Origin: Anaerolineales bacterium UBA2200 | GTDB taxonomy: Bacteria > Chloroflexota > Anaerolineae > UBA2200 | NCBI GenBank assembly: GCA_002327925.1 | Contig: DCVA01000018.1 | Location: 1 to 27,828 of the forward strand | Direction: 5' to 3' | Length of the DNA: 27,828 bases | Part shown: positions 11,623 to 27,828 of the stretch, piece by piece | How the letters are laid out: the number at the start of each line of letters is the position of its first letter | Numbering within the stretch: position 1 is the first letter of the stretch | Made by a program: the position numbers and the translations under genes | Notes under the pieces: model-generated | Seen by the model: only the letters and a program-made list of their open reading frames with translations | Database searches by the model: none | Told to the model about the DNA's origin: nothing

Positions 11623-13535
11623 TATTGGACCTCCTTCGCCCCTGGCGCGTCTTCCACCAGCTGCGAGTTGTAGATTTCGGCATAGGCGGGGCTGTTTTCC
11701 AGCAGGTCTTCGTGGCGCCCGCTGGCCACGATCTGCCCCTTGTCCAGCACCAGGATCTGGTCGGCCATGCGCACCGTGCTGATGCGCTGGGCGATGACAA
11801 AGCTGGTGCGGCCCTTCATCAGGTGGGTCAGGGTCTGCTGGATCTCGTACTCGGTGACGGCATCGACCGAGCTGGTCGAGTCGTCCAGGATGAGAATGCG
11901 CGGGTCCATCAGCAGGGCGCGGGCGATGGCCACGCGCTGCTTCTGGCCGCCGCTCAGCGTCGTCCCGCGTTCGCCGACGCGCGTGTCATAGCCCTGAGGA
12001 AAGCTCATGACAAAGTCGTGCGCCAGGGCCGCTTTGGCCACGGCGATGACCTCGTCCAGGGTCGCCTGTGGGCGGCCGAAGGCGATGTTCTCGCGGATCG
12101 TGCCGCTGAACAGGGTCGTATCCTGCAGCACGATGCCGATTTGCGAGCGCAGCGAGTCCAGGCACACGTCGCGTATGTCGTGGCCATCGATGAGCACCGC
12201 ACCCGAGCTCGCATCGTAAAAGCGCGGGATCAGGTTGATGATGCTGGACTTGCCTGAACCCGTAGCGCCCAGCAGGGCCACGGTCTGGCCTGGTTCGGCC
12301 ACAAAATCGACGTCCTTCAGCACAGGCTCGCCTGAGCCAAAGTAGCTAAAGCTGACCTTCTTGAACTCGACGCGGCCCTCCACGGGCGGCAGGTTCTGGG
12401 CGTCGGGCTTGTTCACCACGTCGCTTTTGGCGTCCAGTATCTCAAAGACGCGCCTGGCCGAGGCGCTGGCCATGGCCATCTGGTTGATGATCATGCCCAG
12501 CATGCCCAGGGGGAAGAACACGTACATCAGGTACATGGTGAACTTTTGCCATTCGCCCAGAGTCAGCGTGCCCAGGATCATCTGGCGCCCGCCAAAGTAC
12601 TGCAGGGCGGCCTGGCCCAGGTTCATGATCAGAAAGACCAGCGGAAAGATGAAGGAAAAGATGCGCGAGACCTTGATGTGCTGCTGCATCAGCGAGTCGG
12701 CGGCGGAGTCAAAGCGCGCCTGCTGTTCCGGCTCGCGGGCAAAGGCCTTGATTACCTTGATGCCGGCCAGGTTTTCCTGCAGGATGGTGTTGAGGTGCGC
12801 CATGCGGGCCTGCACCTCGCGGAAGAGCGGAGCGGCCATCCCCGAAAAGACGCCAAAGATCAGCATGGCCACGGGCAGGAGAGGCAGCACCACCAGAGCC
12901 AGCCGGGCGTTGGTGGCAAAGAGCAGCACGAGGCTGGCCACCAGCATCACCACGGCCTGGGTCATCATCAGCAGGCCCTGGCTGATGTAAATGCGCACCT
13001 TTTCCACGTCGTCGGTGGCGCGCACCATGAGCTGGCCGGTCTGATTCTGGTCGTGATAGCTGAAGGATAAACGCTGGATCTTGCTGAACAGGTCGTTGCG
13101 AAAGTCAAAGGCCACGCTCTGCGAGACCCGCTCGGACATGTAGGTCTGGGCATAGGCGAAGAAGGCGCGGGCCACGGCAAAGGCCACGATCAGCCAGCCG
13201 GCGTTGATCAGGGCCGACTCGGCGCCAGCGCCATAGCTGGCGTACTGCTCGGCGGTCCAGCCCAGCTTTTGCAGGGCCAGGGGCAGAAAGGCCGCGGGAA
13301 TCCCGGCCAGTTGTTTGGCCACCACGCCGTTGGTCACGGCGTTGATGATGCGCTGCATGAGCTGGGGAACCATCAGCATCGCCCCTGTGGCGATGAACAG
13401 CGACAGGTAGGCCAGCAGAGTGTACTTCTTGTAGTGGCCCAGGTAGCGGATGGCGCGGCCCAGCGCGGGGGGCTGTCTTTCGCCCTTCGCGGGGCGGGTT
13501 CGACGGTGGGCCATGCGGGTTGCGAATGATGTCAC
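11622..13535 (-). CDS. ABC exporter fused permease/ATPase subunit, partner of the downstream half-transporter (heterodimeric exporter)
   Basis: ORF 11622..13565. Motifs: Walker A GATGSGKSS, signature LSGGQKQR, Walker B LILDDSTS. The start is ambiguous: GTG at 13535 lies 4 nt after GGAGGT, with alternatives ATG 13514 or GTG 13565. Confidence 0.88.
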   Translation of the reverse strand: MTSFATRMAHRRTRPAKGERQPPALGRAIRYLGHYKKYTLLAYLSLFIATGAMLMVPQLMQRIINAVTNGVVAKQLAGIPAAFLPLALQKLGWTAEQYASYGAGAESALINAGWLIVAFAVARAFFAYAQTYMSERVSQSVAFDFRNDLFSKIQRLSFSYHDQNQTGQLMVRATDDVEKVRIYISQGLLMMTQAVVMLVASLVLLFATNARLALVVLPLLPVAMLIFGVFSGMAAPLFREVQARMAHLNTILQENLAGIKVIKAFAREPEQQARFDSAADSLMQQHIKVSRIFSFIFPLVFLIMNLGQAALQYFGGRQMILGTLTLGEWQKFTMYLMYVFFPLGMLGMIINQMAMASASARRVFEILDAKSDVVNKPDAQNLPPVEGRVEFKKVSFSYFGSGEPVLKDVDFVAEPGQTVALLGATGSGKSSIINLIPRFYDASSGAVLIDGHDIRDVCLDSLRSQIGIVLQDTTLFSGTIRENIAFGRPQATLDEVIAVAKAALAHDFVMSFPQGYDTRVGERGTTLSGGQKQRVAIARALLMDPRILILDDSTSSVDAVTEYEIQQTLTHLMKGRTSFVIAQRISTVRMADQILVLDKGQIVASGRHEDLLENSPAYAEIYNSQLVEDAPGAKEVQ

Positions 13536-13548
13536 GTGTACCTCCGAA

Positions 13549-14097
13549 CTAGACGGATCGGGCACAGCCGAGGCTGGCGAAGAGGGAGCGGCACAGCTTG
13601 TCCAACACGGTGATGGCCAGCTCGCGCTCGTGGCCGGTGAGACTGGAGGCCAGCTCGTTGAGCTGCCTCATGCGGTCCGGGGCTTTGGTCTGCACCAGGC
13701 TCCGCCCGGCGGGAGTGAGCTGGATGCGGAAGAGGCGCAGGTCGGCCGCATCGAGGGCGCGCTCGATCAGCCCCTGCTCCTCCAGACCGCGCAGCAGAGA
13801 GCTGATGGTGTTCTTGGAGACGTTCTGGAAGCGGCTGAGGGCGGTAGGCGTAAGGCCGCTCCGGCCGCCGTGCCGCTCTTCGACAAAAAGGCGCAGCAGC
13901 AGGCCGAAGCGAGCCGCAGAGACGGCCTCATCGCCCGAGGCGCGGTTCTCCAGGGCATCGCTCAGGTTGGCGGCCATGCGCAGCAGCGAGATCAGCTCGA
14001 TGCCGCTGACGTCGTCCAGGCCGGTCATCTGGCGCACGTGCTCGCGCATTTCGTAGCGCTGCGGGGTCATGTGGTTGGGTCTCTGGCTGGGGTCCAT
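13549..14097 (-). CDS. MarR-family transcriptional regulator, first gene of the marR-ABC-ABC operon
   Basis: ORF 13549..14298. The internal ATG at 14097 is preceded by CAGGAG-N7. The winged-helix region is KNTISSLLRGLEEQGLIERALDAADLRLFRIQLTPAGR. Its stop lies 13 nt before the ABC gene start. Confidence 0.85.
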   Translation of the reverse strand: MDPSQRPNHMTPQRYEMREHVRQMTGLDDVSGIELISLLRMAANLSDALENRASGDEAVSAARFGLLLRLFVEERHGGRSGLTPTALSRFQNVSKNTISSLLRGLEEQGLIERALDAADLRLFRIQLTPAGRSLVQTKAPDRMRQLNELASSLTGHERELAITVLDKLCRSLFASLGCARSV

Positions 14098-14125
14098 GGG
14101 TTCGCTCCTGTTTGTTAGGCGCGGA

Positions 14126-14154
14126 ACTGTACCACATCGTACTAATTTTGTCAA
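14126..14154 (-). promoter_or_regulatory. promoter of the marR-ABC operon (minus strand TTGACA-17-TACAGT), with GTAC-N6-GTAC repeat in the spacer as a possible MarR operator
   Basis: Minus-strand read: cacTTGACAaaattagtacgatgtggTACAGTtcc, then CAGGAG-N7-ATG. Confidence 0.4.
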
Positions 14155-14167
14155 GTGAAGGGGGTTC

Positions 14168-14584
14168 CTTGACACCTGCCCTCCGACGGGCCACAATGGC
14201 GGCACTATGGACGAAACCGCACTCACTTCCACTCTGGACCGCACCATCACCCTCAGCGCCCTCTCGATGGACGAGGCGCGGGAGCAGGCCAGGGCCATGC
14301 TCGCCCCAATGGTGGAGGTGCAGTACCTGGCGCCTTCGCTCTACTCCTTCACGCTGGGCCCGAAGCGGGTCTACAACCTGGTGCGCACCTGGGGCGGCCA
14401 CGGGCAGAGGGTGGAAGAGTTCTATGCACCTGCCGGCATTGCTCTGGATCAGGCCGGAAGGGTCTATGTGACGGACAACGGGCTGTACATGAGCAAGAGC
14501 GGCACGCTCAAGCAGCCCTACTCGCGCGTGGTCAAGTTCGACGCCAACGGGCGCTGGCTGGCCATGTGGGGCGAGCGCGGCGAG
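14168..14584 (+). repeat. copy 1 of duplicated promoter plus 5' coding blocks of the NHL paralogs (144 bp + 273 bp at ~99% identity to 21893-22036 and 22370-22642)
   Basis: Direct visual alignment gives 2 mismatches in 144 bp and 3 in 273 bp. Downstream of 14584 the identity falls to roughly 60-70%. Confidence 0.85.
14169..14197 (+). promoter_or_regulatory. promoter of NHL paralog copy 1 (TTGACA-17-CACAAT), essentially leaderless
   Basis: TTGACA at 14169-14174, a 17-nt spacer, CACAAT at 14192-14197 and the ATG at 14207. There is no SD. The element is duplicated at 21894-21922. Confidence 0.4.
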
Positions 14585-15288
14585 CGAGAGGAGCAACTGC
14601 TCGAAGCGCAGGGCCTGGCCATCGACGCAGCGGGCAACGTATGGGTCGCCGATGGCGGCTCGGGCAAGATCGTCGTGTACGAGGCCCGGATGAGGTGAGT
14701 GCGCTCCTTTGGCAGCAAGGGCAGCGGTGAGGGGCAGTTCTCCGGCGGCACGCTGCACGTGGCCCTGGCGCCGGGCGCGAACGTGTATGTGTCGGACCGC
14801 ATGGCCCACCGCGTGCTGCGCTTTACCCGTGAGGGCGAGTACGTGGGCTGCTGGGGCGAGCGGGGCAAGGGCGAAGCGCAACTCGAGCGCCCCGAGGCCA
14901 TTGCCGTCGACTCGCAGGGTACGGTCTATGTGGCCGATGGCGGCAACGACCGCATCTGCAAATTCACCGCCGACGGCACCTATCTCGGCCAGTGGGGCGG
15001 TCGCGGACCTGCGGGGGCGTCGGCCAAGGATATGCCGGACGGCAGTCTGGCCGTGCCCAAGGGCATCCGCTTTGACCGGGCCGACTTCCTGTATGTGGTC
15101 TCGGCGGGCATCCCGGTCAAGTCCCCAGCGGGGGGCGGTTCCTGGCGCGCTGGTACACGTTCAAGCCCACGACGCGGTCGAGCACCAATCCGCTGGATGT
15201 GGCGGTGGATGGGGCGGGGCGGGTGTACGTGCCAGAGGGGAGCCGCAAGCTGGTGGAGAAGTACGAGCAGGGGGCGCTTGACAGATAG
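14207..15288 (+). pseudogene. NHL-repeat (six-bladed beta-propeller) protein paralog, disrupted by an in-frame TGA at 14696-14698 and a frameshift near the G6 run at ~15125
   Basis: ORFs 14207..14698 and 14699..15343 are in the same frame, separated only by TGA. The C-terminal homology to copy 2 (ARWYTFKPTTRSSTNPLDVAVDGAGRVYVPEGSRKLVEKYE versus ARWATYQPKNQPLSNPVDVAVGGAGRVYLLEASRKLVEVYE) continues in a different frame, ending at TAG 15286-15288. Confidence 0.5.
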
Positions 15289-15306
15289 GCTAGAGTCTAC
15301 TAGAAT
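15278..15306 (+). promoter_or_regulatory. promoter of the toxin-antitoxin operon (TTGACA-17-TAGAAT), followed by TACTAG/CTAGTA inverted repeat (15310-15326), a likely autoregulatory operator
   Basis: TTGACA at 15278-15283, a 17-nt spacer and TAGAAT at 15301-15306. The imperfect direct repeats AGAGTCTACTAG / GGAGACTGCTAG and the inverted repeat lie between the -10 and the RBS AAAGGAG. Confidence 0.4.
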
Positions 15307-15342
15307 CGTCTGGAGACTGCTAGTATCAAAAGGAGTCGACTG

Positions 15343-15657
15343 ATGACCGATGCCAAACCGATCCTCACGCCGGATGAAGTGGCGGAATATCTGCGCCTGG
15401 CGCCGGACACGGTGTACCGGTATATCCGCCAGGGCAAGCTCGTTGCCTCGCGTTTGGGGCGGCAGTACCGGGTGACCCGTGAGAGCGTCGAGCTGTTCCT
15501 TGTGAACTCTGAGACGGCAAGGCGCGTCGAACCGGTGCGAGTGGTGGCTGAGGAGATACCCGTGTACTCCCTTTCCGAGCTGTTGGAGGGCCTGACCGAA
15601 GACAATCGTCACGAGGAGACGCAGATGGGTCCCGCTGTGGGGGCCGAGGTATGGTGA
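15343..15657 (+). CDS. antitoxin: N-terminal excisionase-type HTH (HTH_17-like) fused to a MazE/PemI-like C-terminal toxin-binding tail
   Basis: RBS AAAGGAG lies 7 nt upstream. LTPDEVAEYLRLAPDTVYRYIRQGKLVASRLGRQYRV is an excisionase-family HTH. The C-terminal SELLEGLTEDNRHEETQMGPAVGAEVW resembles the acidic MazE/PemI tail. The gene overlaps the toxin gene by 7 nt. Confidence 0.75.
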   Translation: MTDAKPILTPDEVAEYLRLAPDTVYRYIRQGKLVASRLGRQYRVTRESVELFLVNSETARRVEPVRVVAEEIPVYSLSELLEGLTEDNRHEETQMGPAVGAEVW

Positions 15658-15995
15658 TTGGCAAATCTTCTGTCCCCGAGCGCGGCGACATCGTCTGGTT
15701 GGATTTCGATCCCCAGGCGGGGCACGAGCAGGCCGGGCGCCGACCCGCGCTGGTACTTTCTCCTGCCGAGTACAACGGCAAGGCCAGCCTAGCCATCGTG
15801 TGCCCGATTACGAGTCAGGTTAAGGGTTATAACCTGGAGGTGAGCCTGCCGCACGGTTTGCCAGTGCAGGGAGTGGTGCTCTCCGACCACATCAGGAGTG
15901 CGGATTGGCGGATCAGAAGGGCAGAACTGATCTGCCGCGCGCCGCGGACCGTCCTGCTCGCGGTACTTGGTCGGGTGCGCACGCTGCTATTCTAG
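15651..15995 (+). CDS. MazF/PemK-family endoribonuclease toxin
   Basis: RGDIVWLDFDPQAGHEQAGRRPALVLSPAEYN is the hallmark PemK/MazF N-terminal motif. The product is 114 aa and the gene overlaps the antitoxin by 7 nt. Confidence 0.8.
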   Translation: MVIGKSSVPERGDIVWLDFDPQAGHEQAGRRPALVLSPAEYNGKASLAIVCPITSQVKGYNLEVSLPHGLPVQGVVLSDHIRSADWRIRRAELICRAPRTVLLAVLGRVRTLLF

Positions 15996-16108
15996 ACCGG
16001 AGAATTCGGCGCGCAGTGGCGGAGGACACGCACAAGGCTGACCTGGCGCTGAACCTCGCGACGGCCGCGGTGGTATGGATGGGTGACGCGCAGGATCAAG
16101 GAGGCAAC

Positions 16109-16717
16109 GTGGCACCTGTCACCCGCCGGAGACGTGTCGGCGTTCTCACCGTTCTGATGTGCTTTCTACTGCTGGCCGCGTGCGGCCAGACCGTGGCCGA
16201 TTCCCCTACCCCACCCCCGCCCACGCCGACCCCTACGGTCGTCCCGTGGTCGCCACTGCCGAGCACCCCGGTCCCATCGAGATCTCGTACATCGACAACT
16301 CTGGCTTTTTGATCGTGGGCGGCGGCAAAAAGGTGCTGATCGATGCGCACCACCTCGCCGTGCCGGAGGACATCCGCAAGGCCATAGAGACCGCAAGGCC
16401 GCCGTTCGACGACGTGGACCTGATCGTGATCACTCACAACCACGCCAACCGCACAGAACGTGGGCTTTGTCCTGCATCTGGCGGGGAAGAAGCTGCTGCA
16501 CACGGGGGACATCCTCAATACCGCCCAGTTGGCCCCGTACGACCTGCAGGATGACCACCTCGACGTGGCCTTTTTCGAGGTAGTGTGGCTGATGGAGAAG
16601 GCGTATCCCAGGAACGGGATCGCCGCGATTGTCAACATCCTCGGAGCGGAGTGGATCGTGCCCATGCACCCGTCGCCGTACCGGTTCGGGTCGGAGGAAC
16701 TGATGGCCACGCTGTAG
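16109..16717 (+). pseudogene. decayed lipoprotein MBL-fold (Lactamase_B_3-like) metallo-hydrolase: two frame changes and an internal ~80-aa deletion
   Basis: AAGGAGG-N4-GTG at 16109 opens a lipoprotein signal (RRRRVGVLTVLMCFLLLAACG), followed by a PT linker. The MBL core (EISYIDNSGFLIVGGGKKVLIDAH...DLIVITHNHAN) continues in a second frame. The GFVLHLAGKKLLHTGD...PMHP segment is in a third frame, only ~5 codons after the HxH motif. ORFs 15905..16312, 16159..16554 and 16460..16717 cover it. Confidence 0.5.
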
Positions 16718-16854
16718 CAGCAATACCCGAAGAGTCTGCTCTTTCGCGCCCCGCTGGAGCCGCTGGTCGTGCCCCAGGAGGGAAGGGAGGGGGGGTCCGC
16801 CAGGCTGTCGGCGCCCCACACGGGTGCATTGGCCTCCACGAGGAGGTCTGTAGC

Positions 16855-16883
16855 TTGCCTACCCTCGGGAGGCGGTGTAGAAT
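16855..16883 (+). promoter_or_regulatory. promoter of the ATPase-TOPRIM operon (TTGCCT-17-TAGAAT)
   Basis: TTGCCT at 16855-16860, a 17-nt spacer and TAGAAT at 16878-16883. A ~65-nt leader follows, then AAGGGAGG and the ATG at 16956. Confidence 0.35.
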
Positions 16884-16955
16884 AGCCTCGGCGAAGCTGA
16901 ACCTGCGCCCTCGCGGTCCGATGTGGGCGCAACTGCCCGGAGCAAGGGAGGCAAG

Positions 16956-18035
16956 ATGTACACGTCGTTTACCGTCCGCAACTACCGGTGCTTTGAGGAG
17001 CTGGAGCTAACCGGCCTCAAGCGCATCAATCTGGTAGCGGGCCGCAACAACGTGGGCAAGACCGCGTTGTTGGAAGCGTTGTTTCTACATATTGGGGCCT
17101 ACAACCCCACCCTGGCGCTGAAGGTTGAAGCGTTTCGCGGTCTCGAGTTCATCAAGGTAGAACTGACTAGCTGGGCTGAGGCACCCTGGAGCTCGTTGTT
17201 TCCCGATTTTGATTCGGCCAAGACGATCGAGCTCGTTGGCCGTGACACCTCACGCGGCAGAAGCTCGGTTCGAATCAGCGTGCCGGACCAGGAGCCGCAG
17301 GTGGCGCCCGTGCCAGACGCCGGGCCGAGCGCCTACGCATTCGTTCGAGACGAACCTGCTGGCTATGAACGGTTCCCGGCTCTGCTGCTGGAGCACAAGG
17401 GACCCAGGGATAGCCAGACCTATCAGCTGAGATTAGGGCCTGACCTTCAGGTTCGACCGACCCCGCCACCTCCCCCCTTCCCCGGAGTCTTTCTCGGGGC
17501 CAGGAATCGCGTGCCTCCGTCTGAAGATGCGCGGCGATTCAACGACTTGCAGATGGCTGGTCGCGAGCACGTGGTTCTGCCGGCCCTTCGGCTGCTAGAA
17601 CCTCGCCTGAAGCGCCTGACTCTGGGGATCACCCGAGGCGTGACCACCCTGCACGGCGATATTGGCCTCAGCCGGCTGCTCCCCTTGCCAGATATGGGCG
17701 AGGGCATGGTGCGCGCCGCAAGTCTCGTGCTGGCCATCGCCAGCTCCCCGGGCGGCGTTGTACTGATTGACGAGATCGAGAACGGCCTTCACCACTCGCT
17801 GCTCGGCCCCATCTGGCATGCGCTTGGTGAGGTGTGTGCGGCCGCGGATGTGCAACTTTTCGCCACCACGCACAGCTGGGAGAACATCGTGGCCGCACAC
17901 GACATCCTGGGCCGTGGGCGCGAGGCAGTACTGGAGCTGATGAGACTGGACCGGGTCGACGGTTCGATCAGAGCTGTCCGGTACTCACCACGCCTGCTCC
18001 AGGCGGCCATCGAGGGTGCCGTGGAGGTAAGATGA
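16956..18035 (+). CDS. ABC-type/AAA_21-like ATPase (OLD/AriA/PtuA-like) of a two-gene candidate defence module
   Basis: ORF 16923..18035. The ATG at 16956 follows AAGGGAGG. Motifs: Walker A GRNNVGKT, Walker B VVLIDEIENGLHH and H-loop ATTHSWE. An insert-rich middle region separates the two ATPase lobes, as in OLD/AriA-type ABC ATPases. There is no TM segment and no nuclease domain. Confidence 0.8.
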   Translation: MYTSFTVRNYRCFEELELTGLKRINLVAGRNNVGKTALLEALFLHIGAYNPTLALKVEAFRGLEFIKVELTSWAEAPWSSLFPDFDSAKTIELVGRDTSRGRSSVRISVPDQEPQVAPVPDAGPSAYAFVRDEPAGYERFPALLLEHKGPRDSQTYQLRLGPDLQVRPTPPPPPFPGVFLGARNRVPPSEDARRFNDLQMAGREHVVLPALRLLEPRLKRLTLGITRGVTTLHGDIGLSRLLPLPDMGEGMVRAASLVLAIASSPGGVVLIDEIENGLHHSLLGPIWHALGEVCAAADVQLFATTHSWENIVAAHDILGRGREAVLELMRLDRVDGSIRAVRYSPRLLQAAIEGAVEVR

Positions 18036-18682
18036 CTGCGGACACGGCCGGCGATCCGAGTACGCCCACGCAACAGCCCGAGTCCATCTCGCACCCGATT
18101 CTCGTGGTCGTCGAGGGCAAGGAGGAAGTCGCGCTCTTCGACGCACTGGCCAAGCACATGGGGCTCTCCGACATCCAGCCAACGGACACCGGGGGCAAAG
18201 TAGGATTGGCTGCGAAGCTAGAGTTGCTGAGACGGGGCTCAGGGTTTGAGCGGGTGAGGGCGATTGGAGTGGTGCAAGATGCCGACAGAGACCACCAGGG
18301 CAGGTTCAAGAGCGTGTGCGGGGCCCTGCGCAGGGCGCGGCTCCCCGTGCCAACTTGCGAACTTGAGCCTGTTGGAGAACACCCGCGAGTGGTTGTGCTA
18401 ATTGTCCCAGGCGAGGGGCGCCCCGGAGCGCTCGAGGACATCTGTCTTGAAGCCGTACAGAACGAGCCGGCGATGGCCTGCGTGGAGAGCTTCTTTCAGT
18501 GTCTGAAGGGTGCCGGCGTCCCCGCGCCGCGCGAATTGTCGAAGGCCAAGACCCGTGTCTTCCTGGCGTCAAGGCCAAAACCAGACCTGGCGCTCGGCGT
18601 GGCGTGTGCAGAAGGCTATTGGCCGCTCAAGGGGAAGGCTTTCGACGACCTGCGCAAGCTTCTGTCCCTGCTGTGCGCCTAG
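18032..18682 (+). CDS. small TOPRIM-like protein (DUF4276/DUF4435-like: conserved Glu in VVVEGKEE and DxD in VVQDADRD), translationally coupled partner of the ATPase
   Basis: Its ATG at 18032 overlaps the ATPase stop (ATGA). The N-terminal beta-strand plus EG(K/x)(E/T)E and a later DxD are the TOPRIM catalytic signature seen in OLD, Gabija GajA and PARIS AriB. The product is 216 aa. Confidence 0.65.
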   Translation: MTADTAGDPSTPTQQPESISHPILVVVEGKEEVALFDALAKHMGLSDIQPTDTGGKVGLAAKLELLRRGSGFERVRAIGVVQDADRDHQGRFKSVCGALRRARLPVPTCELEPVGEHPRVVVLIVPGEGRPGALEDICLEAVQNEPAMACVESFFQCLKGAGVPAPRELSKAKTRVFLASRPKPDLALGVACAEGYWPLKGKAFDDLRKLLSLLCA

Positions 18683-18708
18683 ACTGCCCTGGAGTGGCAC
18701 TCATCGCG

Positions 18709-21700
18709 CTAGCTCTGCCCCTCGACGATTGCGATCTCTTCCTCGGTCAGCCCGTACAGCTCATCGACCAGCGCATCGATCTCCCTGTCCGTGGCGGTGA
18801 TCTGGCGGGTGTACAGCTCGCGGTCGGCTTCGGTGCGGGCGGCGGCCAGGTGCTTGTGCAGCTCGAGCATAAGGTTGACCAGCTCGACCATGCGGGCGTG
18901 GCGGGCGGCGTCGGCCGGGTCGGAGAAGTCGATGGCGCGGATTGGCAATTGCTCAATGTATTGCTTGTTCGCCGCATAGTAGCCGCCGTGAAACCTGCTG
19001 GCAAGGCGCCTGAACTGGAAGTCCAGCAGCGTGGAGTTAAGGAGACCACACAAGTAAATTAACCCCATTGGCGAGTCTGTGACGAGGCCGTACCCGCCGG
19101 TGGTGACGTTGATGAAGTACAGATCCTCGGAGAGATCAAGGTACGCCGAAAGCCGGCTGACCATGTAAGGTACCATCAGCTTGCTGCGCTCCCAGGCGCC
19201 GAGGTTCTGTGTTCTGCCGAATCTGTACCATCGAGCATCCTTGAAACTGCCATGCTCACGATCCTGCAGCAGGCCCTTGTTGGCGCTCAAGTACGCCCAG
19301 GCGAGCGGGTACCGCTCACGCAGCTCGGTGGCTGAGATCAGCTCGGCCGTTCCCTCCGCAATGTGGTATGGAAAGAGCACATAAGCAGATGCGACGGCAT
19401 GGTATCGGCCGATATCTCCGCTGCGAACCACGGGGCGCAAAATGGAGGACTCGAGCTCTACCCAGCGGCCAAGCTCCTTCGACAGTACCTCGGTGACGGC
19501 GGTCCTGGCGCTCGGGCGGCTTTCCTTGAAGAGCATGACTGTGTCAGCGCTCGTTATGGGCCCCTGGTAGATGCGAGCCGCCACGGTTCCCAGCTTGACC
19601 GGCATGGCAGCCAAGCGACCGAACAGGGAGCCTTCCAAGCCCACGGCGAAATTCCAGTCTTCTCCCGTCATGCTCTTTGCGGGAACGTGACCACTTGTCG
19701 CCGCGCCCGACGCCTGCCACTCCGACAAGTCGATGACCTTCCGAACGTCGACCTGCTTTGCCCCTGCCTTGTCCAGAAACATCAGGCAGGTGTAGGTGGT
19801 AGCTCCCGAAAAGACCTGTTGGTCCCCAAAGTGCACCACGTGCGAGAGGTGCTTTCCTTTGGCGATCAGCTCGCGCAGCGGCCTTCCGTACTGGGCGTTG
19901 AAGAACTTGTGCGGCAGGATGAAGCCAAGCCGCCCGTGCGGATTGAGCAGACTCAGTCCCTTCTCGACAAACACGACATAGATGTCATAGTTGCCCTTGC
20001 TGGCCGCGACATAGTGCTGCTTGTACAGCTCGACCTCGAGGGGCGCCCACTCCTTCATCGTCTGGATACGAATGTAGGGCGGGTTGCCGATCACGACGTC
20101 AAACCCGCCCGCCTTCATCACCTCGGCGAACTCCTTTCGCCAGTCAAAGGCATTGACCCTACGCTCCTCCTTGTCATCGTAGAACAAGCTTCGGGGCACC
20201 TGGTCCGGCCCAATGAGCGAGTTGCCACATTTGATGTTCTTGCCCAAATCCGGCAGGGCGCGCTCCTGGAACAGCTTGAGCTGTTGTCCCAGCGTCTGCT
20301 CGTTCTCCCCCTCCAGCACCTTGAGCAGGAGGTTCAGCTTGGTCACCTCCACCGCCTGGCGGTCGATGTCCACGCCGTAGATGTTGTTCAGCAGGATGCG
20401 TTTCTTTTCGGCAGTGGTCAGGCGCCACTCGTCCTTCGACAACCGGCGCACGGGCGGCTTCTTGGCGGCAGCCCACTTTTCCAGATCGTGCCGCGTGTAC
20501 CACTCGAGATGGTAATCCAGCAGGTGCTGGTAGGCGCCGAGCAGGAATGACCCCGAGCCGCAGGCCGGGTCGAGTACGCGCAGTTTGCTGATCTGCTCGG
20601 GGGTCTGGTCCTTGATTTGCCCGCCCACGGTGTGCTCGACGATGTAATCGACGATGTAGGTGGGGGTGTAGTAGACGCCGCCGGCCTTTTTGACCTCGGG
20701 CTTTTCCTCGACCACGGCCCTGTGCGCCGGGGTGAGGCGGATGACCTTGCCCAGGAACTGCTCGTACACCTGGCCGAGGATGTCCACGGGTATTACGTCG
20801 AACATGTACTTGGAGGCGGGGTAGTACAGGGCCGAGATGATCTCCTTCAGCGGCTTGTCGTCGACATTCAGGTCGCGCGAAACAGAGTCCTTGCTCAAGT
20901 CAAACAACCCCGAATTGTACCTGTCATTCGCACGGCCAATCAGGGTCTTGACCTGTTCGTAGATGTCAGGTTGGCCAAGCAACTGCTCGAGTTGGCGCTG
21001 AGGCTCGCAGCGGCGGTCCTCCGCCACTCGCAGGAACAGGATTCGATCGATCGTCGCCTGCACGGCGTGGTTCATTTCGCTGACTGACAGGGTCGGGTTG
21101 CGCAGGGCGAGGCTGCGGGCCAGCATATCGCGCCACTCCTCGATGTCCTTCAGGATTGACTGGTCGACCGTGAAGGTGCCGCGATGCTTTGCCGCTTGTT
21201 GGGCAAAGCGGTCCAGCGAACCATTTTCAACCGACCACTTGGAGAAGGTCTGCCAGAGCAGCGACCAGGGTTCGTCTTCGACGTACTGGTCGAAGGTTAG
21301 CAGGTGCCGCCGTGCGAAATCGGCGCTGTCGGCTAGGCCGGGCGGACGCGTGCAATCATAGACGGCAAACTCTTCGAAATCGGTGAGGATGGAAAGGGGG
21401 AGCCTCAGGTTCCAGGCATAGGCGCGCACCTGGAGAGCCGGACCGGTTCCTGCAGTGATGTGAACGGCTGGCTTTTTCGCCTCGACCAGGAATTTGCGCT
21501 TGCCATCGATGCGAAAGCTATAGTCGGGCGCTCTGACGGTGTCGGAGTCACGCACGGACTCCTCGCGAACCACGTCCTTCAGCAGCTGCGAGGCGCCCGA
21601 CCGATTGTGCACGTCCCAGCCGAGGGCCTCGAAGAAGGGGTCGATGTACTCGACGCGGACCTCGGTCTCATGGTACCCCGAGGAGCGGTAGCTATCGAGG

Positions 21701-21765
21701 TGGCTCCGGAAGCGCTCGACCAGGTTGGCGACGTCGCTCCTGGCCTTGTCCATTGGCTCTGTCAT
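18709..21765 (-). CDS. Type IIG (MmeI-like) single-polypeptide restriction-modification enzyme: N-terminal PD-(D/E)xK nuclease (HsdR_N-like), gamma-class N6-adenine MTase, C-terminal target recognition domain
   Basis: The nuclease motif is APDYSFRIDGKRKFLVEAKKP. MTase motif I is VLDPACGSGSFLLGAY and motif IV is VVIGNPPYIRIQ. The ~300-aa C-terminal TRD contains LNSTLLDFQFRRL. No separate specificity or helicase gene is present. Confidence 0.8.
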   Translation of the reverse strand: MTEPMDKARSDVANLVERFRSHLDSYRSSGYHETEVRVEYIDPFFEALGWDVHNRSGASQLLKDVVREESVRDSDTVRAPDYSFRIDGKRKFLVEAKKPAVHITAGTGPALQVRAYAWNLRLPLSILTDFEEFAVYDCTRPPGLADSADFARRHLLTFDQYVEDEPWSLLWQTFSKWSVENGSLDRFAQQAAKHRGTFTVDQSILKDIEEWRDMLARSLALRNPTLSVSEMNHAVQATIDRILFLRVAEDRRCEPQRQLEQLLGQPDIYEQVKTLIGRANDRYNSGLFDLSKDSVSRDLNVDDKPLKEIISALYYPASKYMFDVIPVDILGQVYEQFLGKVIRLTPAHRAVVEEKPEVKKAGGVYYTPTYIVDYIVEHTVGGQIKDQTPEQISKLRVLDPACGSGSFLLGAYQHLLDYHLEWYTRHDLEKWAAAKKPPVRRLSKDEWRLTTAEKKRILLNNIYGVDIDRQAVEVTKLNLLLKVLEGENEQTLGQQLKLFQERALPDLGKNIKCGNSLIGPDQVPRSLFYDDKEERRVNAFDWRKEFAEVMKAGGFDVVIGNPPYIRIQTMKEWAPLEVELYKQHYVAASKGNYDIYVVFVEKGLSLLNPHGRLGFILPHKFFNAQYGRPLRELIAKGKHLSHVVHFGDQQVFSGATTYTCLMFLDKAGAKQVDVRKVIDLSEWQASGAATSGHVPAKSMTGEDWNFAVGLEGSLFGRLAAMPVKLGTVAARIYQGPITSADTVMLFKESRPSARTAVTEVLSKELGRWVELESSILRPVVRSGDIGRYHAVASAYVLFPYHIAEGTAELISATELRERYPLAWAYLSANKGLLQDREHGSFKDARWYRFGRTQNLGAWERSKLMVPYMVSRLSAYLDLSEDLYFINVTTGGYGLVTDSPMGLIYLCGLLNSTLLDFQFRRLASRFHGGYYAANKQYIEQLPIRAIDFSDPADAARHARMVELVNLMLELHKHLAAARTEADRELYTRQITATDREIDALVDELYGLTEEEIAIVEGQS

Positions 21766-21794
21766 TACGGCCCCCGCGCGCGGTGATAACGCCC

Positions 21795-21823
21795 AGTGTA
21801 GCGCAGGGCGGGCAAGAGGCCAA
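21795..21823 (-). promoter_or_regulatory. candidate promoter of the Type IIG gene (minus strand TTGGCC-17-TACACT)
   Basis: Weak consensus match. The leader to the ATG at 21765 is ~25 nt. Confidence 0.25.
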
Positions 21824-21892
21824 ACCGCGCCAGCAGAGCTCGATCAGCCCCCGACCCTCCAGACCCAGCAATTGCGAACGGAATGGAGGCTT

Positions 21893-22642
21893 CTTGACAC
21901 CTGCCCTCCGACGGGCCATAATGGCGGCACTATGGACGAAACCGCACTCACTTCCACTCTGGACCGCACCATCACCCTCACCGCCCTCTCGATGGACGAG
22001 GCGCGGGAGCAGGCCAGGGCCATGCTCGCCCCAATGCAGGTAATCGTCGCTGAGGCGCTGCTGCAGGCGGGGGAGACCGACCTGCTGCAGGGTCAGGGCG
22101 TCACGGCCCGGCTGGCCATCCTCCAGGCGATGCAGCAGGCCCCTGTGGGCAGCCGCGTGGTCAGCGCCCGCGAGCTGGACCCGGCTGTGCCGCGCACCGA
22201 GTTTGTCCTGGCGCATGGCGAGGAGCAGGCGCGGCTGCAGGCAAGGCGTGGGCTCAAGCGCGGGGAGGTTCTCGTTGAGCTGGAGCTGACCGCCGCGGCG
22301 GAAAAGGGCAAGCTGGGGGTGGGGCGCAAGCCAGCTCAGTACCAGGCCTCCATCGTGCGGCAGGCGCGGGTGGAGGTGCAGTACCTGGCGCCTTCGCTCT
22401 ACTCCTTCACGCTGGGCCCGAAGCGGGTCTACAACCTGGTGCGCTTCTGGGGCGGCCACGGGCAGAGGGTGGAAGAGTTCTATGCACCTGCCGGCATTGC
22501 TCTGGATCAGGCCGGAAGGGTCTATGTGACGGACAACGGGCTGTACATGAGCAAGAGCGGCACGCTCAAGCAGCCCTACTCCCGCGTGGTCAAGTTCGAC
22601 GCCAACGGGCGCTGGCTGGCCATGTGGGGCGAGCGCGGCGAG
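21893..22642 (+). repeat. copy 2 of duplicated NHL promoter/5' blocks (21893-22036 and 22370-22642), interrupted by a 333-bp in-frame insertion (22037-22369) absent from copy 1
   Basis: Same alignment as for 14168-14584. The insertion encodes QVIVAEALLQ...IVRQAR (111 aa). Confidence 0.85.
21894..21922 (+). promoter_or_regulatory. promoter of NHL paralog copy 2 (TTGACA-17-CATAAT), leaderless-type
   Basis: The -10 ends 9 nt before the ATG at 21932 and there is no SD. It is a duplicate of 14169-14197. Confidence 0.45.
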
Positions 22643-23308
22643 GGCGAAGGGCAGATGCTCGAGGCGCAGGGCATCCAGGTGGGCCCGGACGGCCATGTGT
22701 GGGTGGCGGACGGCGCAGGGGCGAAGGTGGTCGAGTTCGATCCGCGCATGCGCCCTGTGAGGTGGTGGGGCGGCCGGGGAGAGGGCGAAGGTCTGTTCTC
22801 CGGCGGCGCCCTGCACCTGGCCCTGGCGCCTGACGGCAGCATTTACGTGTCGGACCGGCTGGCGCACAGGGTATCGCGCTTTGACCGCTCGGGGGCTTAC
22901 CTGCTGGGCTGGGGCGGCAACGGCAGCGACCCGGGCCAGTTCGAGCGGCCCGAGGGAGTGGCCGTGGACTCGGCCGGCAACGTCTACGTGGCCGACGGGG
23001 GAAACGACCGCATCGGCAAGTTCACCGCCGAGGGCGCCTTCCTCACGCAGTGGGGCGGACGGGGCGTGGCGGATGGCTCCCTGGCCGTGCCGCGCGGCCT
23101 CGCCATCGACCGGGCCGACTGCCTGTATGTGACCTCGGCGGGCATCGCGGTCCAGAAATTCAGCACAGAGGGCGAGTTCCTGGCCAGATGGGCCACCTAC
23201 CAGCCAAAGAACCAGCCGCTGAGCAATCCCGTGGACGTGGCCGTGGGCGGTGCCGGACGGGTGTACCTGCTCGAGGCCAGCCGCAAGCTTGTCGAGGTGT
23301 ACGAGTAG
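21932..23308 (+). CDS. NHL-repeat beta-propeller protein (intact paralog), no signal peptide, unknown N-terminal domain
   Basis: ORF 21725..23308. The ATG at 21932 follows the leaderless promoter. Repeated blades of the form GxxxxPxGIAxDxxGxVYVxDxxNxRIxKF occur six times. Confidence 0.8.
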   Translation: MDETALTSTLDRTITLTALSMDEAREQARAMLAPMQVIVAEALLQAGETDLLQGQGVTARLAILQAMQQAPVGSRVVSARELDPAVPRTEFVLAHGEEQARLQARRGLKRGEVLVELELTAAAEKGKLGVGRKPAQYQASIVRQARVEVQYLAPSLYSFTLGPKRVYNLVRFWGGHGQRVEEFYAPAGIALDQAGRVYVTDNGLYMSKSGTLKQPYSRVVKFDANGRWLAMWGERGEGEGQMLEAQGIQVGPDGHVWVADGAGAKVVEFDPRMRPVRWWGGRGEGEGLFSGGALHLALAPDGSIYVSDRLAHRVSRFDRSGAYLLGWGGNGSDPGQFERPEGVAVDSAGNVYVADGGNDRIGKFTAEGAFLTQWGGRGVADGSLAVPRGLAIDRADCLYVTSAGIAVQKFSTEGEFLARWATYQPKNQPLSNPVDVAVGGAGRVYLLEASRKLVEVYE

Positions 23309-23409
23309 GCCCTTCATTCGCCGCTGCGTGAGGTGGCGGGTCACTTCTCTTCATCCGGGCCCTGCTCCTGAGCCGGCGGCGACAGACCACTTCCCCGAAC
23401 AAACCCCTG

Positions 23410-23437
23410 TTAACTTAAGCCGTAATCCGCGTATGAT
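23410..23437 (+). promoter_or_regulatory. candidate promoter of the flotillin gene (TTAACT-16-TATGAT)
   Basis: It lies 50 nt upstream of GAGGAAGG-N8-ATG at 23487. Confidence 0.3.
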
Positions 23438-23486
23438 CACCCGGCCCATCTGCCGCCAAGGCATTGGGCGAGAGGAAGGTCCAACC

Positions 23487-25466
23487 ATGTGGCAGTTCGT
23501 TTTGGCCGTGTTTGTTACGATGGTACTGCTTTTGTTCCTGTTCCTGACGGTGCGCTTCATCCCCAACAACCGGGTCGGCGTGGTCGAGAAACGCTTTAGC
23601 GCCAAGGGCTCTGTCAAGTCGGGCTTGATCGCGCTGAACGGCGAGGCGGGCTTTCAGCCCGAGGTGCTGCGCGGCGGCATCCACCTGCTGATGCCGATTC
23701 AGTACCGCGTGCACACGGTGCGGCTCATCACCATCCCGCAGGGCAAGATCGGATACGTCTTTGCCCGCGACGGCGTGCCGCTCGATGGCGGCCAGGTTCT
23801 GGGCCGCCTGACCGAATCGAACAACTTTCAGGACGTCCGCGCGTTTCTCAAGAACGATGGCCAGCGCGGGCCGCAGCGCCAGATCCTGCGCGAAGGCACC
23901 TACGCCATCAACCTGGCTCAGTTCGTGGTGATTACCCAGGATTCTGTGCAGTACCTCCGGCTCAGCAGCGACGAGACGGCCACGTTCCAGCGCATGGCGG
24001 ACATCATCACAGAGCGGCAGGGCTTTCAGCCCGTGGTGATCAAGGGCGCGGACGACAATGTGGGCATCGTGACGGTGCACGACGGGCCGAGTCTGCCGCA
24101 GGGTACGATCATCGCGCCGACAGTGGGCGACGATCCGGGCAGGCCCGACGTGTTCCACAACGGCTTTCAGACGCCGGAGAGTTTCCTGCGCGCAGGCGGC
24201 AGGCGCGGCCGGCAGCTTCAGGTGCTGGTCGAGGGTACCTACTACATCAACCGGCTGTTCGCCACGGTCGAGGTGATCCCCAAGACGGTGATCGACGTCG
24301 GCTGGGTGGGGGTGGTGGTTTCCTACACCGGCGAAACGGGCACCGACCTGAGCGGCGAGGACTATAAGCACGGCGAGCTGGTGCAGCAGGGCCAGCGCGG
24401 CGTCTGGAGCATTCCGCTCATGCCCGGCAAGTATGCCTTCAACACCTATGCGGGCAAGGTCATCGCCATCCCGACCACCAACTTTATCCTCAAGTGGGTC
24501 GCCAGTGAAGTAGGGGTGCACCACTTTGACGAGGACCTGTCCGAGATCCAGCTCATCACCAAGGACGCCTTCGAGCCGTTGCTGCCTCTCTCGGTGGTCG
24601 TGCACATCGACTATCGCAAGGCCCCTCTGGTGATCCAGCGCTTTGGCGAGATCAAGCGGCTGGTGGACCAGACCCTGGACCCGATGGTGGCGGCGTACTT
24701 TAAGAACAGCGCCCAGACGCGCACGCTGATCCAGCTTATCCAGCAGCGCAGCGAGATCCAGAGCCGGGCCAGCGAGGAGATGAAGGAAAAGTTCGCCCAC
24801 TACAACCTGGAGCTCGAGGAGGTGCTGATCGGCACGCCGCTCTCCAGGGCGGGCGACCATAACATCGACCTCATTCTGCAGCAGTTGCGCGACAGGCAGA
24901 TCGCCGAGGAACAGGTCGAGACCTACGGCCGCCAGGAAAAGGCCTCGTTCAAGGAGCGCGAGCTGCGCGAAGTGGAAGCACGCGCGCGCCAGCAGCAGCT
25001 CCTGACCGAGTCGGAGGTCAGCATCAGCATCCAGGCCAACCAGGGCAAGGCCGAATACCAGCGCTCGCTGCAGCAGGCGGCGCAGATCCGTGCTCTGGCC
25101 GACGCGGAGGCGGAAAAGATAGCCCGCATCGGCATCGCCCAGGCCATGGCCATCGAAGAGCAGGTTCGCGCCTACGGTGGGCCACGCTACCAGGTGGTGC
25201 AGCAGGTAATGAACCGCTTCTCGGAGGCGGTGGAAAAGAGCAAGATCGAAGTCGTGCCGCGCGTGGTGGTGTCGGGCGGCGGCAAGGACGGCGGCCAGGC
25301 CATGGCCGGGGGCAACGCGCTCGAGTCGCTGCTCACCGTGCTGCTGGCCGAGAAGATGGCCGAGCCGGCCAGCGCCGGCACGTCGCCCAGGTCACCCGAG
25401 ACCGAGTCCCTGCGCGAGCAGATTCGCCAGGGGCTGAAGGCAAAGCAAGAGGGCGACAAGGCCTAG
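23487..25466 (+). CDS. flotillin-like SPFH/band-7 domain membrane-scaffold protein (FloT-like) with long C-terminal coiled coil
   Basis: ORF 23250..25466. The ATG at 23487 follows GAGGAAGG. There is an N-terminal TM helix (MWQFVLAVFVTMVLLLFLFLTV) and an SPFH core. The coiled coil carries EA/Q-rich repeats (EAEKIARIGIAQAMAIEEQVRAY). Confidence 0.85.
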   Translation: MWQFVLAVFVTMVLLLFLFLTVRFIPNNRVGVVEKRFSAKGSVKSGLIALNGEAGFQPEVLRGGIHLLMPIQYRVHTVRLITIPQGKIGYVFARDGVPLDGGQVLGRLTESNNFQDVRAFLKNDGQRGPQRQILREGTYAINLAQFVVITQDSVQYLRLSSDETATFQRMADIITERQGFQPVVIKGADDNVGIVTVHDGPSLPQGTIIAPTVGDDPGRPDVFHNGFQTPESFLRAGGRRGRQLQVLVEGTYYINRLFATVEVIPKTVIDVGWVGVVVSYTGETGTDLSGEDYKHGELVQQGQRGVWSIPLMPGKYAFNTYAGKVIAIPTTNFILKWVASEVGVHHFDEDLSEIQLITKDAFEPLLPLSVVVHIDYRKAPLVIQRFGEIKRLVDQTLDPMVAAYFKNSAQTRTLIQLIQQRSEIQSRASEEMKEKFAHYNLELEEVLIGTPLSRAGDHNIDLILQQLRDRQIAEEQVETYGRQEKASFKERELREVEARARQQQLLTESEVSISIQANQGKAEYQRSLQQAAQIRALADAEAEKIARIGIAQAMAIEEQVRAYGGPRYQVVQQVMNRFSEAVEKSKIEVVPRVVVSGGGKDGGQAMAGGNALESLLTVLLAEKMAEPASAGTSPRSPETESLREQIRQGLKAKQEGDKA

Positions 25467-25495
25467 GCCGCCCTCCCACAGTTCACCGAACGTGT

Positions 25496-25529
25496 ACCCG
25501 GCGCGGTCAACAGAGTGACCGCGCCGGGT
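25496..25529. terminator. perfect 14-bp stem / 6-nt loop hairpin between convergent flotillin and TetR genes (terminator-like, no U-tract)
   Basis: ACCCGGCGCGGTCA-acagag-TGACCGCGCCGGGT. Confidence 0.4.
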
Positions 25530-25575
25530 TCCTCATCCCGGCAAACGGCCGTCCGTTCCGCCTGCAGCGTCGCCG

Positions 25576-26280
25576 TCACACTGCGGGTGATGGCTTACAA
25601 CGCATCAGCGGCAGGCCCGGCCGGAGAAAGGCCTCCACCTGTCGGGCTATGTCCTCCGCTGTGAGCTGGTAGCCGCGCAGGCGCCAGTACTTGACGCAGG
25701 CAAAGCTGGCATAGATGGTCACATAGCCGTACATTTCGGCGTCCACGCCGCGGGTCTCGGCGGGGGGCAAGGGATGGATGCGCTCCTTCAGCAGCAGTGA
25801 CAGCCGGCCGCAGAACTCGTCCAGGGTCAGCCCCGGAAGGCGCGAATCGAGGATGGCGTCGTAGAGGTCGCGATGGTCATAGATATGCTGATAGTGGTCC
25901 ACCTGGACCGCCAGAGGCAGGGAGCCGTCTCCCCCCTGCTCCAGCGCCCGCACATAGTCAACCGTGTGCTGCACAAAATGCGACAGCTCGTGTTCGATCA
26001 TCCTGCTCGCCAGGTCGTACTTGTCGGCATAGCGGGCGTAGAAGGCGTTCCGGCTAAAGCCGGAGCGAGCCAGGATATCGGTGACGCGCACGTCGCCAAA
26101 ATCCATCTCCTTGAGCATGGCGGCAAGCGCGGCGGCGAACGCCTTCTCCGAACGGGTTAGTGGTTTCTCCCACACGGCATCACCCGGCCCCGGCCAGGGG
26201 CCCCTCCACTCCACGCAAACACCACCCGGCAGTACTGCTCTTTCCTCCCAAAATGGGACGGAATCGCCGGATTTGTCCAT
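25576..26280 (-). CDS. TetR/AcrR-family transcriptional regulator
   Basis: The HTH is VRVTDILARSGFSRNAFYARYADKYDLASRMIE. The start is uncertain: ATG at 26280 or an internal GTG. It is divergent from the SDR gene. Confidence 0.75.
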   Translation of the reverse strand: MDKSGDSVPFWEERAVLPGGVCVEWRGPWPGPGDAVWEKPLTRSEKAFAAALAAMLKEMDFGDVRVTDILARSGFSRNAFYARYADKYDLASRMIEHELSHFVQHTVDYVRALEQGGDGSLPLAVQVDHYQHIYDHRDLYDAILDSRLPGLTLDEFCGRLSLLLKERIHPLPPAETRGVDAEMYGYVTIYASFACVKYWRLRGYQLTAEDIARQVEAFLRPGLPLMRCKPSPAV

Positions 26281-26329
26281 TGACGGCGCGATTGAGGCCC
26301 ACTATAGTGGTCACCAGCGAGCCCATCAA
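26280..26329. promoter_or_regulatory. overlapping divergent promoters sharing a palindromic -10/operator CCACTATAGTGG (26299-26310): plus TTGACG-17-TATAGT (SDR), minus TTGATG-17-TATAGT (TetR)
   Basis: The 12-bp perfect palindrome contains TATAGT on both strands. TTGACG lies at 26280-26285 and rc-TTGATG at 26324-26329, each exactly 17 nt from the shared -10. Confidence 0.4.
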
Positions 26330-27806: not shown

Positions 27807-27828
27807 TGCCCTTAGGAGGAGATTGGCG

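Follow-up and report, generated by a model that had tools for sequence, protein, structure and literature searches.

Two NHL-repeat genes in a probable integrase-free variable region of an uncultured Anaerolineales bacterium

Here we describe a stretch of 27,828 nucleotides (nt) from Anaerolineales bacterium UBA2200 (assembly GCA_002327925.1, contig DCVA01000018.1; hereafter the window), in which two genes for NHL-repeat proteins, copy 1 and copy 2, lie in direct orientation on either side of a set of defence-related genes. Comparison with related loci makes it somewhat probable that the region running from the first NHL gene to a block of phage portal and capsid genes is a chromosomal variable region, renewed by general recombination and devoid of any integrase. 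The near-identical sequence blocks that the NHL genes share would then be a by-product of an insertion and transfer history, and not the cause of the hotspot.

The same NHL gene precedes four different gene sets

The window was compared with three loci of sister Anaerolineae (L008, L013 and L106), which provide one outgroup species only. Its left flank, composed of two ABC genes, a divergently oriented MarR-family regulator (13549-14097, minus strand; Pfam MarR_2) and the NHL gene, is kept in all three, with the regulator at the same place in each, and positions 9616-14154 are 81.5-82% identical to the sister species at the nucleotide level. The right flank, a portal/capsid block, is common to the window lineage (followed in the overlapping contig L007), L013 and L106, at 71-77% nucleotide identity; the comparison of L008 does not extend that far. 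Behind the same NHL gene stand four gene sets: in the window, a toxin-antitoxin (TA) pair, a metallo-beta-lactamase (MBL) pseudogene, an AbiLi-like/DUF3226 pair, a Type IIG restriction-modification (RM) enzyme, the second NHL gene, a flotillin, a TetR regulator and an SDR protein; in L106, a TA pair, a 266-aa gene and the Type IIG enzyme; in L013, a DUF3467 gene, five small open reading frames and the Type IIG enzyme; and in L008, the non-defence genes for SBP_bac_5, a C39/PA14 peptidase and a propeller protein. No integrase, transposase or recombinase was found among all called window genes by Pfam scan or in precomputed Pfam hits, ARAGORN detected no tRNA, and Rfam returned no hit in the region. 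These data agree with the first-pass annotation of the window, made from its letters only, which had proposed a locus that varies without an integrase.

The sister-species alleles bear marks of exchange at the flanking gene itself. They differ by about 1% in the 5' part of NHL (6-10 of 684 nt) and 4-7% in its 3' part, the between-strain divergence in that species being 0.9-1.5%, and their homology ends 8 nt past the NHL stop codon. Synonymous divergence (dS) rises three- to fivefold along the gene, from 0.03-0.05 in its 5' half to 0.09-0.18 in its 3' half, and change points were placed at positions 842 and 967 in copy-2 coordinates (maximum chi-square, permutation p<=0.004). A breakpoint in common with that separating the two window copies (705-712, see below) was considered and rejected, since the change points fall at 842 and 967 and only the variable codon 712-714 coincides.

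Gene order further separates old residents from additions. L106 reads ABC, MarR, a single NHL, HTH_17, PemK, the 266-aa gene, Type IIG, and then the 197, 86, portal and protease-capsid genes, its portal and head genes having PHROG matches. The window is collinear with it over 10157-14154, 14332-15271 (copy 1), 15250-15977 (the TA pair with its promoter, at 83.4% identity and in the same position), 18719-18918 and 20078-21829 (Type IIG), at 75-83% nucleotide identity throughout, and the collinearity extends through L007 to the head-gene block, which the Type IIG gene directly abuts in L013 and L106. It follows that copy 1, the HTH/MazF pair and the Type IIG gene form an inherited backbone. Two stretches are specific to the window: 15995-18709, with the MBL pseudogene and the AbiLi-like/DUF3226 pair, and a segment of about 6.1 kb that starts at 21830. 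The proposal that the NHL pair brackets the cargo as a unit is thus not supported, the TA and Type IIG genes being collinear with the L106 backbone and copy 2 lying in a separate segment. Nor is it supported that the pair maintains the hotspot, as had also been suggested: sister-species cargo varies with a single NHL gene, and the boundaries are MarR/NHL on the left and portal/capsid on the right.

The two NHL copies share their promoter and 5' part

Two direct repeats, both on the plus strand and collinear, were delimited with find_repeats, MAFFT and megablast. Block A (14168-14311 and 21893-22036) is 144 nt long with two mismatches (98.6% identity), one at 14194 in the -10 hexamer and one at 14256, a Ser/Thr difference. 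Block B (14311-14584 and 22369-22642) is 274 nt long with three mismatches, at 14387-88 and 14524 (98.9% identity). Together, the paired blocks differ at 5 of 417 positions (1.2%), and their longest perfect runs measure 26, 61 and 55 nt in A, and 76, 135 and 60 nt in B. Block A carries a sigma-70-like promoter (14169-14197 in copy 1, 21894-21922 in copy 2, matching the consensus at 10 and 11 of 12 positions, respectively, in a promoter scan), the ATG (14207 and 21932) and the first 35 codons. Because the offset between repeats shifts from 7725 in A to 8058 in B, copy 2 holds 333 nt (111 codons; 22037-22369, plus strand) more between the blocks. In copy 1, block B abuts block A directly, with these 333 nt absent and 1 nt of microhomology at the junction. 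Identity between copies switches after gene nt 711, where the best-conserved stretch of the gene ends, mismatches rising from 1.1% before this point to 30% beyond it (maximum chi-square, 121.7); downstream of the blocks, the copies are 69.6% identical. The coordinates, sizes and identities given for the blocks in the first-pass annotation are hence right, and its figure of 60-70% identity for the remainder holds as well.

Copy 1 is a chimeric pseudogene

Copy 1 (14207-15288, plus strand) had been reported as disrupted, and indeed carries four lesions: the 333-nt deletion, a TGG-to-TGA change giving an in-frame stop at 14696-14698, where the orthologues carry TGG, a frameshift due to 4 nt absent after 15118, and the loss of the normal stop codon, replaced by CAG at 15268-15270. 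All full-length NHL homologues are 447-458 aa long and all hold the 111-residue segment; the length difference is therefore a deletion from copy 1, and not an in-frame insertion into copy 2 as first described.

The two ends of copy 1 have different affinities. Its 3' part (14585-15288) is 80-81.6% identical at the nucleotide level to the single NHL gene of the sister species, next to 81.5-82% for the flank, and has a 24-nt indel in common with it; copy 2 is 71% identical to that gene. In block B, both copies show 66-68% amino-acid identity to the clade formed by P0003, P0013, P0122 and P0123, compared with 78-81% within the clade, and in the 3' region (C) copy 1 rises to 77-83%. For copy 2, identity to the copy-1/sister clade is 66-69% whichever of the two regions, B or C, is compared. 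Neighbour-joining trees are discordant in the same way: for block B, copies 1 and 2 group together with 100% bootstrap and fall outside the clade with 97%, while for region C copy 1 lies within the clade and copy 2 is excluded from it with 100%. At the nucleotide level, block B is 74.7% identical to the sister species, a value between both expectations that was discarded as a guide to the direction of transfer; the protein comparison, with more clade members, and the bootstrap were decisive. Taken together, these comparisons show that copy 1 is a chimera, with a promoter and 5' part (the first ~710 nt in gene coordinates) of the copy-2 lineage and a 3' part that is the vertical orthologue of the sister NHL gene; it is thus the vertically inherited, MarR-adjacent NHL gene, now dead. 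The incongruence between block B and the 3' region points to a late non-reciprocal transfer or partial duplication and not to an old duplication, in line with the original proposal. Sliding identity across MarR did not make the left end of a conversion tract visible.

Copy 2 lies in a window-specific segment

Copy 2 (21932-23308, plus strand) is intact, encodes 458 aa with NHL repeats, is followed by a terminator-like hairpin at 23316-23341, and is a coherent gene of a divergent NHL lineage. It belongs to the window-specific segment of about 6.1 kb (21830-27828, plus strand, continuing about 150 nt past the window end), which comprises a MarR-like remnant, copy 2, the flotillin gene (23487-25466), the TetR gene (25576-26214, minus strand) and the SDR gene (26307-27731). 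The segment occupies the Type IIG/portal intergenic region of L013 and L106, where it stands in place of a spacer of about 200 nt, and neither a target-site duplication nor terminal repeats or terminal inverted repeats were found at its junctions. The remnant, 33 nt long (21838-21870, minus strand), is identical at 28 of 33 positions to the MarR coding sequence at 13761-13793 (LRGLEEQGLIE motif), and lies 62 nt upstream of the copy-2 ATG and 8 nt inside the left end of the segment; we estimate the chance expectation of such a match at about 1e-6, a figure of our own for a small search space. The presence of this remnant at the left end suggests that the segment derives from another MarR-NHL locus. 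A second MarR tblastn match upstream of copy 2 was dismissed as spurious, as it is not collinear and overlaps the Type IIG upstream region.

Flotillin orthologues with 92% and 84% amino-acid identity lie in unrelated contexts and did not reveal the origin of the segment. Exact-protein look-up of the window copy 2 and of P0001 gave no record; the near-identical P0121 led to a contig in ENA. A scan of genome contigs with copy 2 retrieved distant NHL proteins only, and a metagenome scan with the family alignment, based on generic peptides, returned 80 mostly distant NHL loci, none of them new for the close clade.

Over the 15.9 kb that the window and the ENA assembly have in common, all four single-nucleotide polymorphisms (SNPs) fall inside copy 2 (22509-22510, 22828 and 22837). 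They amount to one Q193R change and two synonymous sites, at the last two of which the JGI contig reads N, and one of the four matches the copy-1 base. This cluster looks like local polymorphism or micro-conversion.

Insertion followed by transfer into the resident gene is the favoured history

Within the favoured reading of a variable region that turns over by general recombination, the following course of events would account for the present layout. The segment of about 6.1 kb, with its divergent NHL gene, would have been inserted in the window lineage, and not lost from the sister species. After arrival of the second NHL gene, a non-reciprocal transfer from copy 2 to copy 1, either gene conversion or homeologous replacement, would have overwritten the resident promoter and the 5' 750 nt, the crossover on the right falling at nt 711. 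Copy 1 would subsequently have lost its 333 nt and decayed, copy 2 presumably supplying the function. In the resulting arrangement, a RecA-mediated deletion between the blocks is plausible: it would remove the 3' part of copy 1 with the TA, MBL, AbiL and Type IIG genes and leave one NHL gene beside MarR, which would be intact if the crossover fell in block A, and would be devoid of the 333-nt segment if it fell in block B.

Several observations weigh against this course of events. To the left of the promoter, the contexts of copies 1 and 2 have no convincing similarity (8 of 14 nt); since conversion needs homology on both sides, one must suppose that the incoming segment once held more of a MarR-NHL intergenic region and that this was deleted afterwards. 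With only ~70-75% identity between them, the 5' parts of the resident and the incoming gene would have made a poor RecA substrate. With a single outgroup species, insertion and loss of the segment cannot be polarised. Finally, the 1.2% divergence between blocks equals that between strains of the sister species (0.9-1.5%), which fits equally well a history in which the blocks are allelic copies.

Allelic copies in tandem, and other explanations

In that history, DNA from a conspecific strain bearing the NHL2/flotillin allele was added to the locus instead of being exchanged, so that the 5' blocks are tandem allelic copies and no conversion is required. By homology-facilitated illegitimate recombination, the right end would have recombined in the conserved head-gene block and the left end would have been joined illegitimately in the Type IIG/portal spacer, while the chimeric nature of copy 1 would stem from an older exchange within the NHL gene. 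It presupposes that strains of the window species share a MarR/NHL-5' flank of about 99% identity and differ in their alleles of NHL-3' plus cargo. Such is the pattern seen in the sister species, where alleles differ by about 1% in the 5' part and 4-7% in the 3' part, and are unrelated from 8 nt past the stop; the block divergence (5/417, 1.2%) equals their 5' divergence (6-10/684), and a segment whose left end lies in a MarR-like remnant, without target-site duplication, is what an illegitimate join would be expected to leave. The remnant is nevertheless only 85% identical (28/33) to the resident MarR, where a conspecific donor would give about 99%, the ~350 nt expected between remnant and promoter are absent, and no strain with just one of both alleles was found among the assemblies and metagenome contigs searched. 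We regard this history as a tentative second choice, rather unlikely as a whole.

A bolder version is less credible still, and we hold it unlikely: the window would have caught a 'stacked' intermediate of hotspot turnover, with two alleles of NHL-3' plus cargo in tandem, joined by a duplicated NHL 5' anchor and open to a RecA switch. If this were true, one RecA event would toggle the locus between a defence-rich and a defence-poor state, with loss of MazF, the AbiL-like system and the Type IIG enzyme, each switch would restore one intact, promoter-bearing NHL gene, and cargo exchange in this Anaerolineae lineage would have a portable homology anchor in the conserved 5' 711 nt of NHL.

The idea put forward in the first-pass annotation, that the paired NHL blocks are themselves the hotspot device, whose recombination repeatedly excises or exchanges the TA/MBL/AbiL/IIG unit and leaves a chimeric NHL gene, appears improbable. 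The identical, directly oriented runs of up to 135 nt found here would be enough for RecA-dependent deletion, judged by its minimal processing segments; moreover, no integrase is present and the cargo differs among relatives. In those relatives, however, variable cargo goes with a single NHL gene, the paired arrangement occurs in this strain only, and the TA and Type IIG genes are inherited backbone by position and not a unit inserted between repeats. No excision product was seen among the four MarR-bearing and two flotillin-bearing contigs, all compatible with the tandem state, most of which end in or near the repeats, and a pattern search of JGI metagenome contigs gave no MarR-adjacent NHL gene keeping the 333-nt segment. 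The blocks have gathered five differences, and copy 1 four lesions, without homogenisation or loss, whereas 4 SNPs in 15.9 kb are all that separates two strains.

Two further models were considered and rejected. Silent-cassette antigenic variation of the pilE/pilS type does not apply, as there is one extra copy only, which bears a promoter, the transfer went from the intact to the dead copy, and one of four SNPs matches copy 1. An integrative mobile element is not indicated either, for there is no recombinase and no tRNA, the flanking repeats (144/274 nt) are host-gene promoter and coding sequence, and the segment of about 6.1 kb has no terminal repeats.

The duplicated layout is found in independent assemblies

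The ENA contig (L007/L015) is 99.97% identical to window positions 11913-27828 and has the same copy 1/cargo/copy 2 layout. It has another left flank and 4 SNPs in 15.9 kb, and is therefore a separate assembly, whose sample may or may not differ. The JGI contig L016 is 100% identical to 3549-14475 with copy-1-specific alleles, runs across the A|B junction of copy 1, where the 333 nt are absent, and ends inside block B. Another JGI contig, L019, begins inside block B of copy 2, and the Logan and ENA contigs L017 and L018 terminate in block A. Copy-specific SNPs cap exact repeats at 135 nt or less. The duplicated layout is thus carried by independent assemblies of the same strain and is not an artefact. 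Collapse or chimerism of the contig is indeed a very remote explanation: short-read contigs of three datasets break inside the blocks, where assemblers evidently struggle, but two long contigs, set apart by their left flanks and by 4 SNPs, traverse both copies identically, exact runs stay below k=141, and the JGI contig gives the copy-1 junction and alleles at 100% identity.

Contig L015 departs from the window left of 11913, within the ABC exporter gene (11622-13565), and continues with CusB/ACR_tran efflux genes followed by a NarG-like gene; the JGI and Logan contigs side with the window. Either the rearrangement is real, or the L015 assembly contains a chimeric join.

Cargo genes and neighbouring defence genes

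The labels toxin-antitoxin, MBL pseudogene, ATPase and Type IIG that had been assigned to the cargo in the first-pass annotation are supported by Pfam, NCBIfam and PADLOC matches. The TA module (15278-15995, plus strand) starts with a promoter of its own (15278-15306), and comprises an HTH_17 protein (15343-15657), of the excisionase family by name and the partner of MazF by context, the pair being kept in L106, and an overlapping MazF/PemK toxin (15651-15995; NCBIfam 120.5 bits for a cut-off of 120). Downstream lies a frameshifted pseudogene of the Lactamase_B_3 MBL fold with a lipoprotein-signal remnant (16090-16720, plus strand), specific to the window, in which the N-terminal part of PF13483 is recognisable in fragment 16159-16554 and the C-terminal part, in another frame, in fragment 16460-16717. 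In L002 and L003, an MBL-fold gene lies directly upstream of NHL; the MBL genes upstream of NHL in the distant relatives L001 and L002 were considered as homologues of the pseudogene and rejected, as there is no similarity.

A pair of genes specific to the window relative to the sister species (16923-18682, plus strand) comprises an AbiLi-like ABC/AAA_21 ATPase, starting at 16923 or 16956 and ending at 18035 (PADLOC AbiLi, 3.4e-45), and a separate gene for a DUF3226 protein (18032-18682; Pfam 7e-22, PDC-M38B 3.9e-06). Together they match the PADLOC models AbiLi and PDC-M38A+B, and form a candidate two-gene defence system. The DUF3226 protein had no sequence hit in the PDB, and a literature search gave no mention of DUF3226; its single-sequence AlphaFold2 model, with a pLDDT of 40, is unusable for judging the TOPRIM label of the first-pass annotation; in an ATPase-TOPRIM system of the OLD/Gabija-like kind, a TOPRIM nuclease domain would be joined to the ABC ATPase or act as its partner.

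The Type IIG RM enzyme (18709-21765, minus strand; 1018 aa; PADLOC 8.9e-254) is common to L013 and L106, with both ends 76-87% identical at the nucleotide level. Between them, the window gene and those of the sister species have no nucleotide similarity from 18945 to about 19901-20078, a stretch that by its position could be a swapped specificity (target-recognition) module.

To the left of the variable region, a Type III RM pair (3744-8713) consists of an N6_N4_Mtase mod gene (3744-6026) and a ResIII helicase/endonuclease res gene (5867-8713). This stretch has a GC content of 0.57, compared with 0.64, forms a second defence block across the ABC-ABC-MarR core, and is replaced in the sister species by other genes (AAA_25, NTP_transf_2/HepT). 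By their annotation, the Type IIG, AbiLi-like/DUF3226, MazF and Type III RM genes would make up a cluster of several anti-phage systems, as in a defence island. A distant NHL homologue (49% amino-acid identity) also lies among defence-like genes, in L001 (8032-21356), where its neighbours encode a 594-aa AAA_15/AAA_21 protein, a 972-aa TIR-TPR protein, a RecJ-like DHH protein, PDDEXK and UvrD.

Features at the edges of the variable region

Four observations concern the borders of the region. First, the L106 locus holds, at 5790-5830, a scar of about 25 nt corresponding to an NHL 3' end (..CTGGCGGAGAGGTACGAGTAG), just upstream of the TA promoter and 130 nt past the stop codon of the complete NHL gene; it bears witness to a previous NHL replacement at this locus. 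Second, the MarR-NHL intergenic region of the sister species is filled by a tandem array of a 72-nt unit, about 10 copies with 84% matches in L013 (9139-9889), present at the same place in L008 and shorter in L106 (3937-4296), the copy number differing among alleles. Each unit contains a hairpin (CTACGAACC..GGTTCGTAG) with no Rfam match. The window is without this array, and its homology to the sister species stops at 14157, 10 nt before block A.

Third, a promoter scan placed a promoter-like site for MarR at 14154-14126. This minus-strand site (TTGACAAAATTAGTACGATGTGGTACAGT) is very similar to the promoter that precedes the portal/capsid block (TTGACAAATTAGAACGTTTGTGCTAGTAT; L007 about 16090-16120, ~250 nt past the window end, conserved in L013 and L106), and the two form an imperfect inverted pair around the whole variable region, possibly under a shared operator. 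Fourth, the portal gene and the protease-major-head fusion gene (L007 16988-20349) are conserved between the two species at 66-84% amino-acid identity, and the genes immediately upstream of portal include no recognisable large terminase. The head genes may be a domesticated or defective phage-head module, similar to a gene transfer agent (GTA) or a satellite, that forms the right boundary of the variable region.

Discussion

The locus is of a known kind, an integrase-free variable and defence region with recombination in a flanking gene; only the preserved chimeric pseudogene beside its tandem paralogue is unusual. Hotspots of horizontal gene transfer (HGT) free of mobile genetic elements have been described (PMC5635113), with clean double-crossover replacement at flanking core genes as the model. 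Our sequence comparisons indicate the same features here: conserved flanks, differing gene sets in relatives, no integrase, transposase or tRNA, and a flanking core gene with phylogenetic incongruence and raised synonymous divergence. Unlike in those hotspots, the flanking NHL gene is partly duplicated, in an additive two-copy state with a chimeric pseudogene. The region likewise resembles cDHS1 and cDHS2 of Pseudomonas aeruginosa, chromosomal sites with conserved flanks and varying anti-phage systems, for which transfer via the flanks by homologous recombination has been proposed (Johnson et al. 2023, PMC10250203). It differs from them in belonging to a Chloroflexi (Anaerolineae) lineage known only from metagenomes, in having a phage-head block as its right boundary, and in the non-defence cargo of the L008 allele (SBP_bac_5, peptidase and propeller proteins), and this last feature makes it a general variable region.

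As for the NHL pair, the breakpoint after nt 711 and the discordant trees are those expected of a chimeric paralogue. The abrupt switch from 99% to 70% identity, the discordance and the coherent donor copy are also found in ectopic gene conversion between paralogues, from which the present case differs in that the tract takes in the promoter and stops at, or close to, a non-homologous boundary, and that 333 nt are missing from within the recipient. Additive integration of foreign DNA by homology-facilitated illegitimate recombination was reportedly described by de Vries and Wackernagel in 2002. The likeness to it consists in one homology-anchored end, the other end joined without homology, no target duplication, the recipient sequence kept, and related genes in tandem; unlike there, the mechanism would here be read from the anatomy of the junctions, with no donor identified.

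For annotation, these results mean that copy 1 should be called a pseudogene, and that the HTH/MazF and Type IIG genes are long-standing residents, whereas what is specific to the window is the AbiLi-like/DUF3226 pair together with the NHL2-flotillin segment. The locus reveals no new mechanism; it offers a well-resolved example, from an uncultured Chloroflexi lineage, of how an integrase-free variable and defence region is remodelled. Its value is that of a case study and of a marker locus, from MarR-NHL to portal, for mining the cargo diversity of this lineage.

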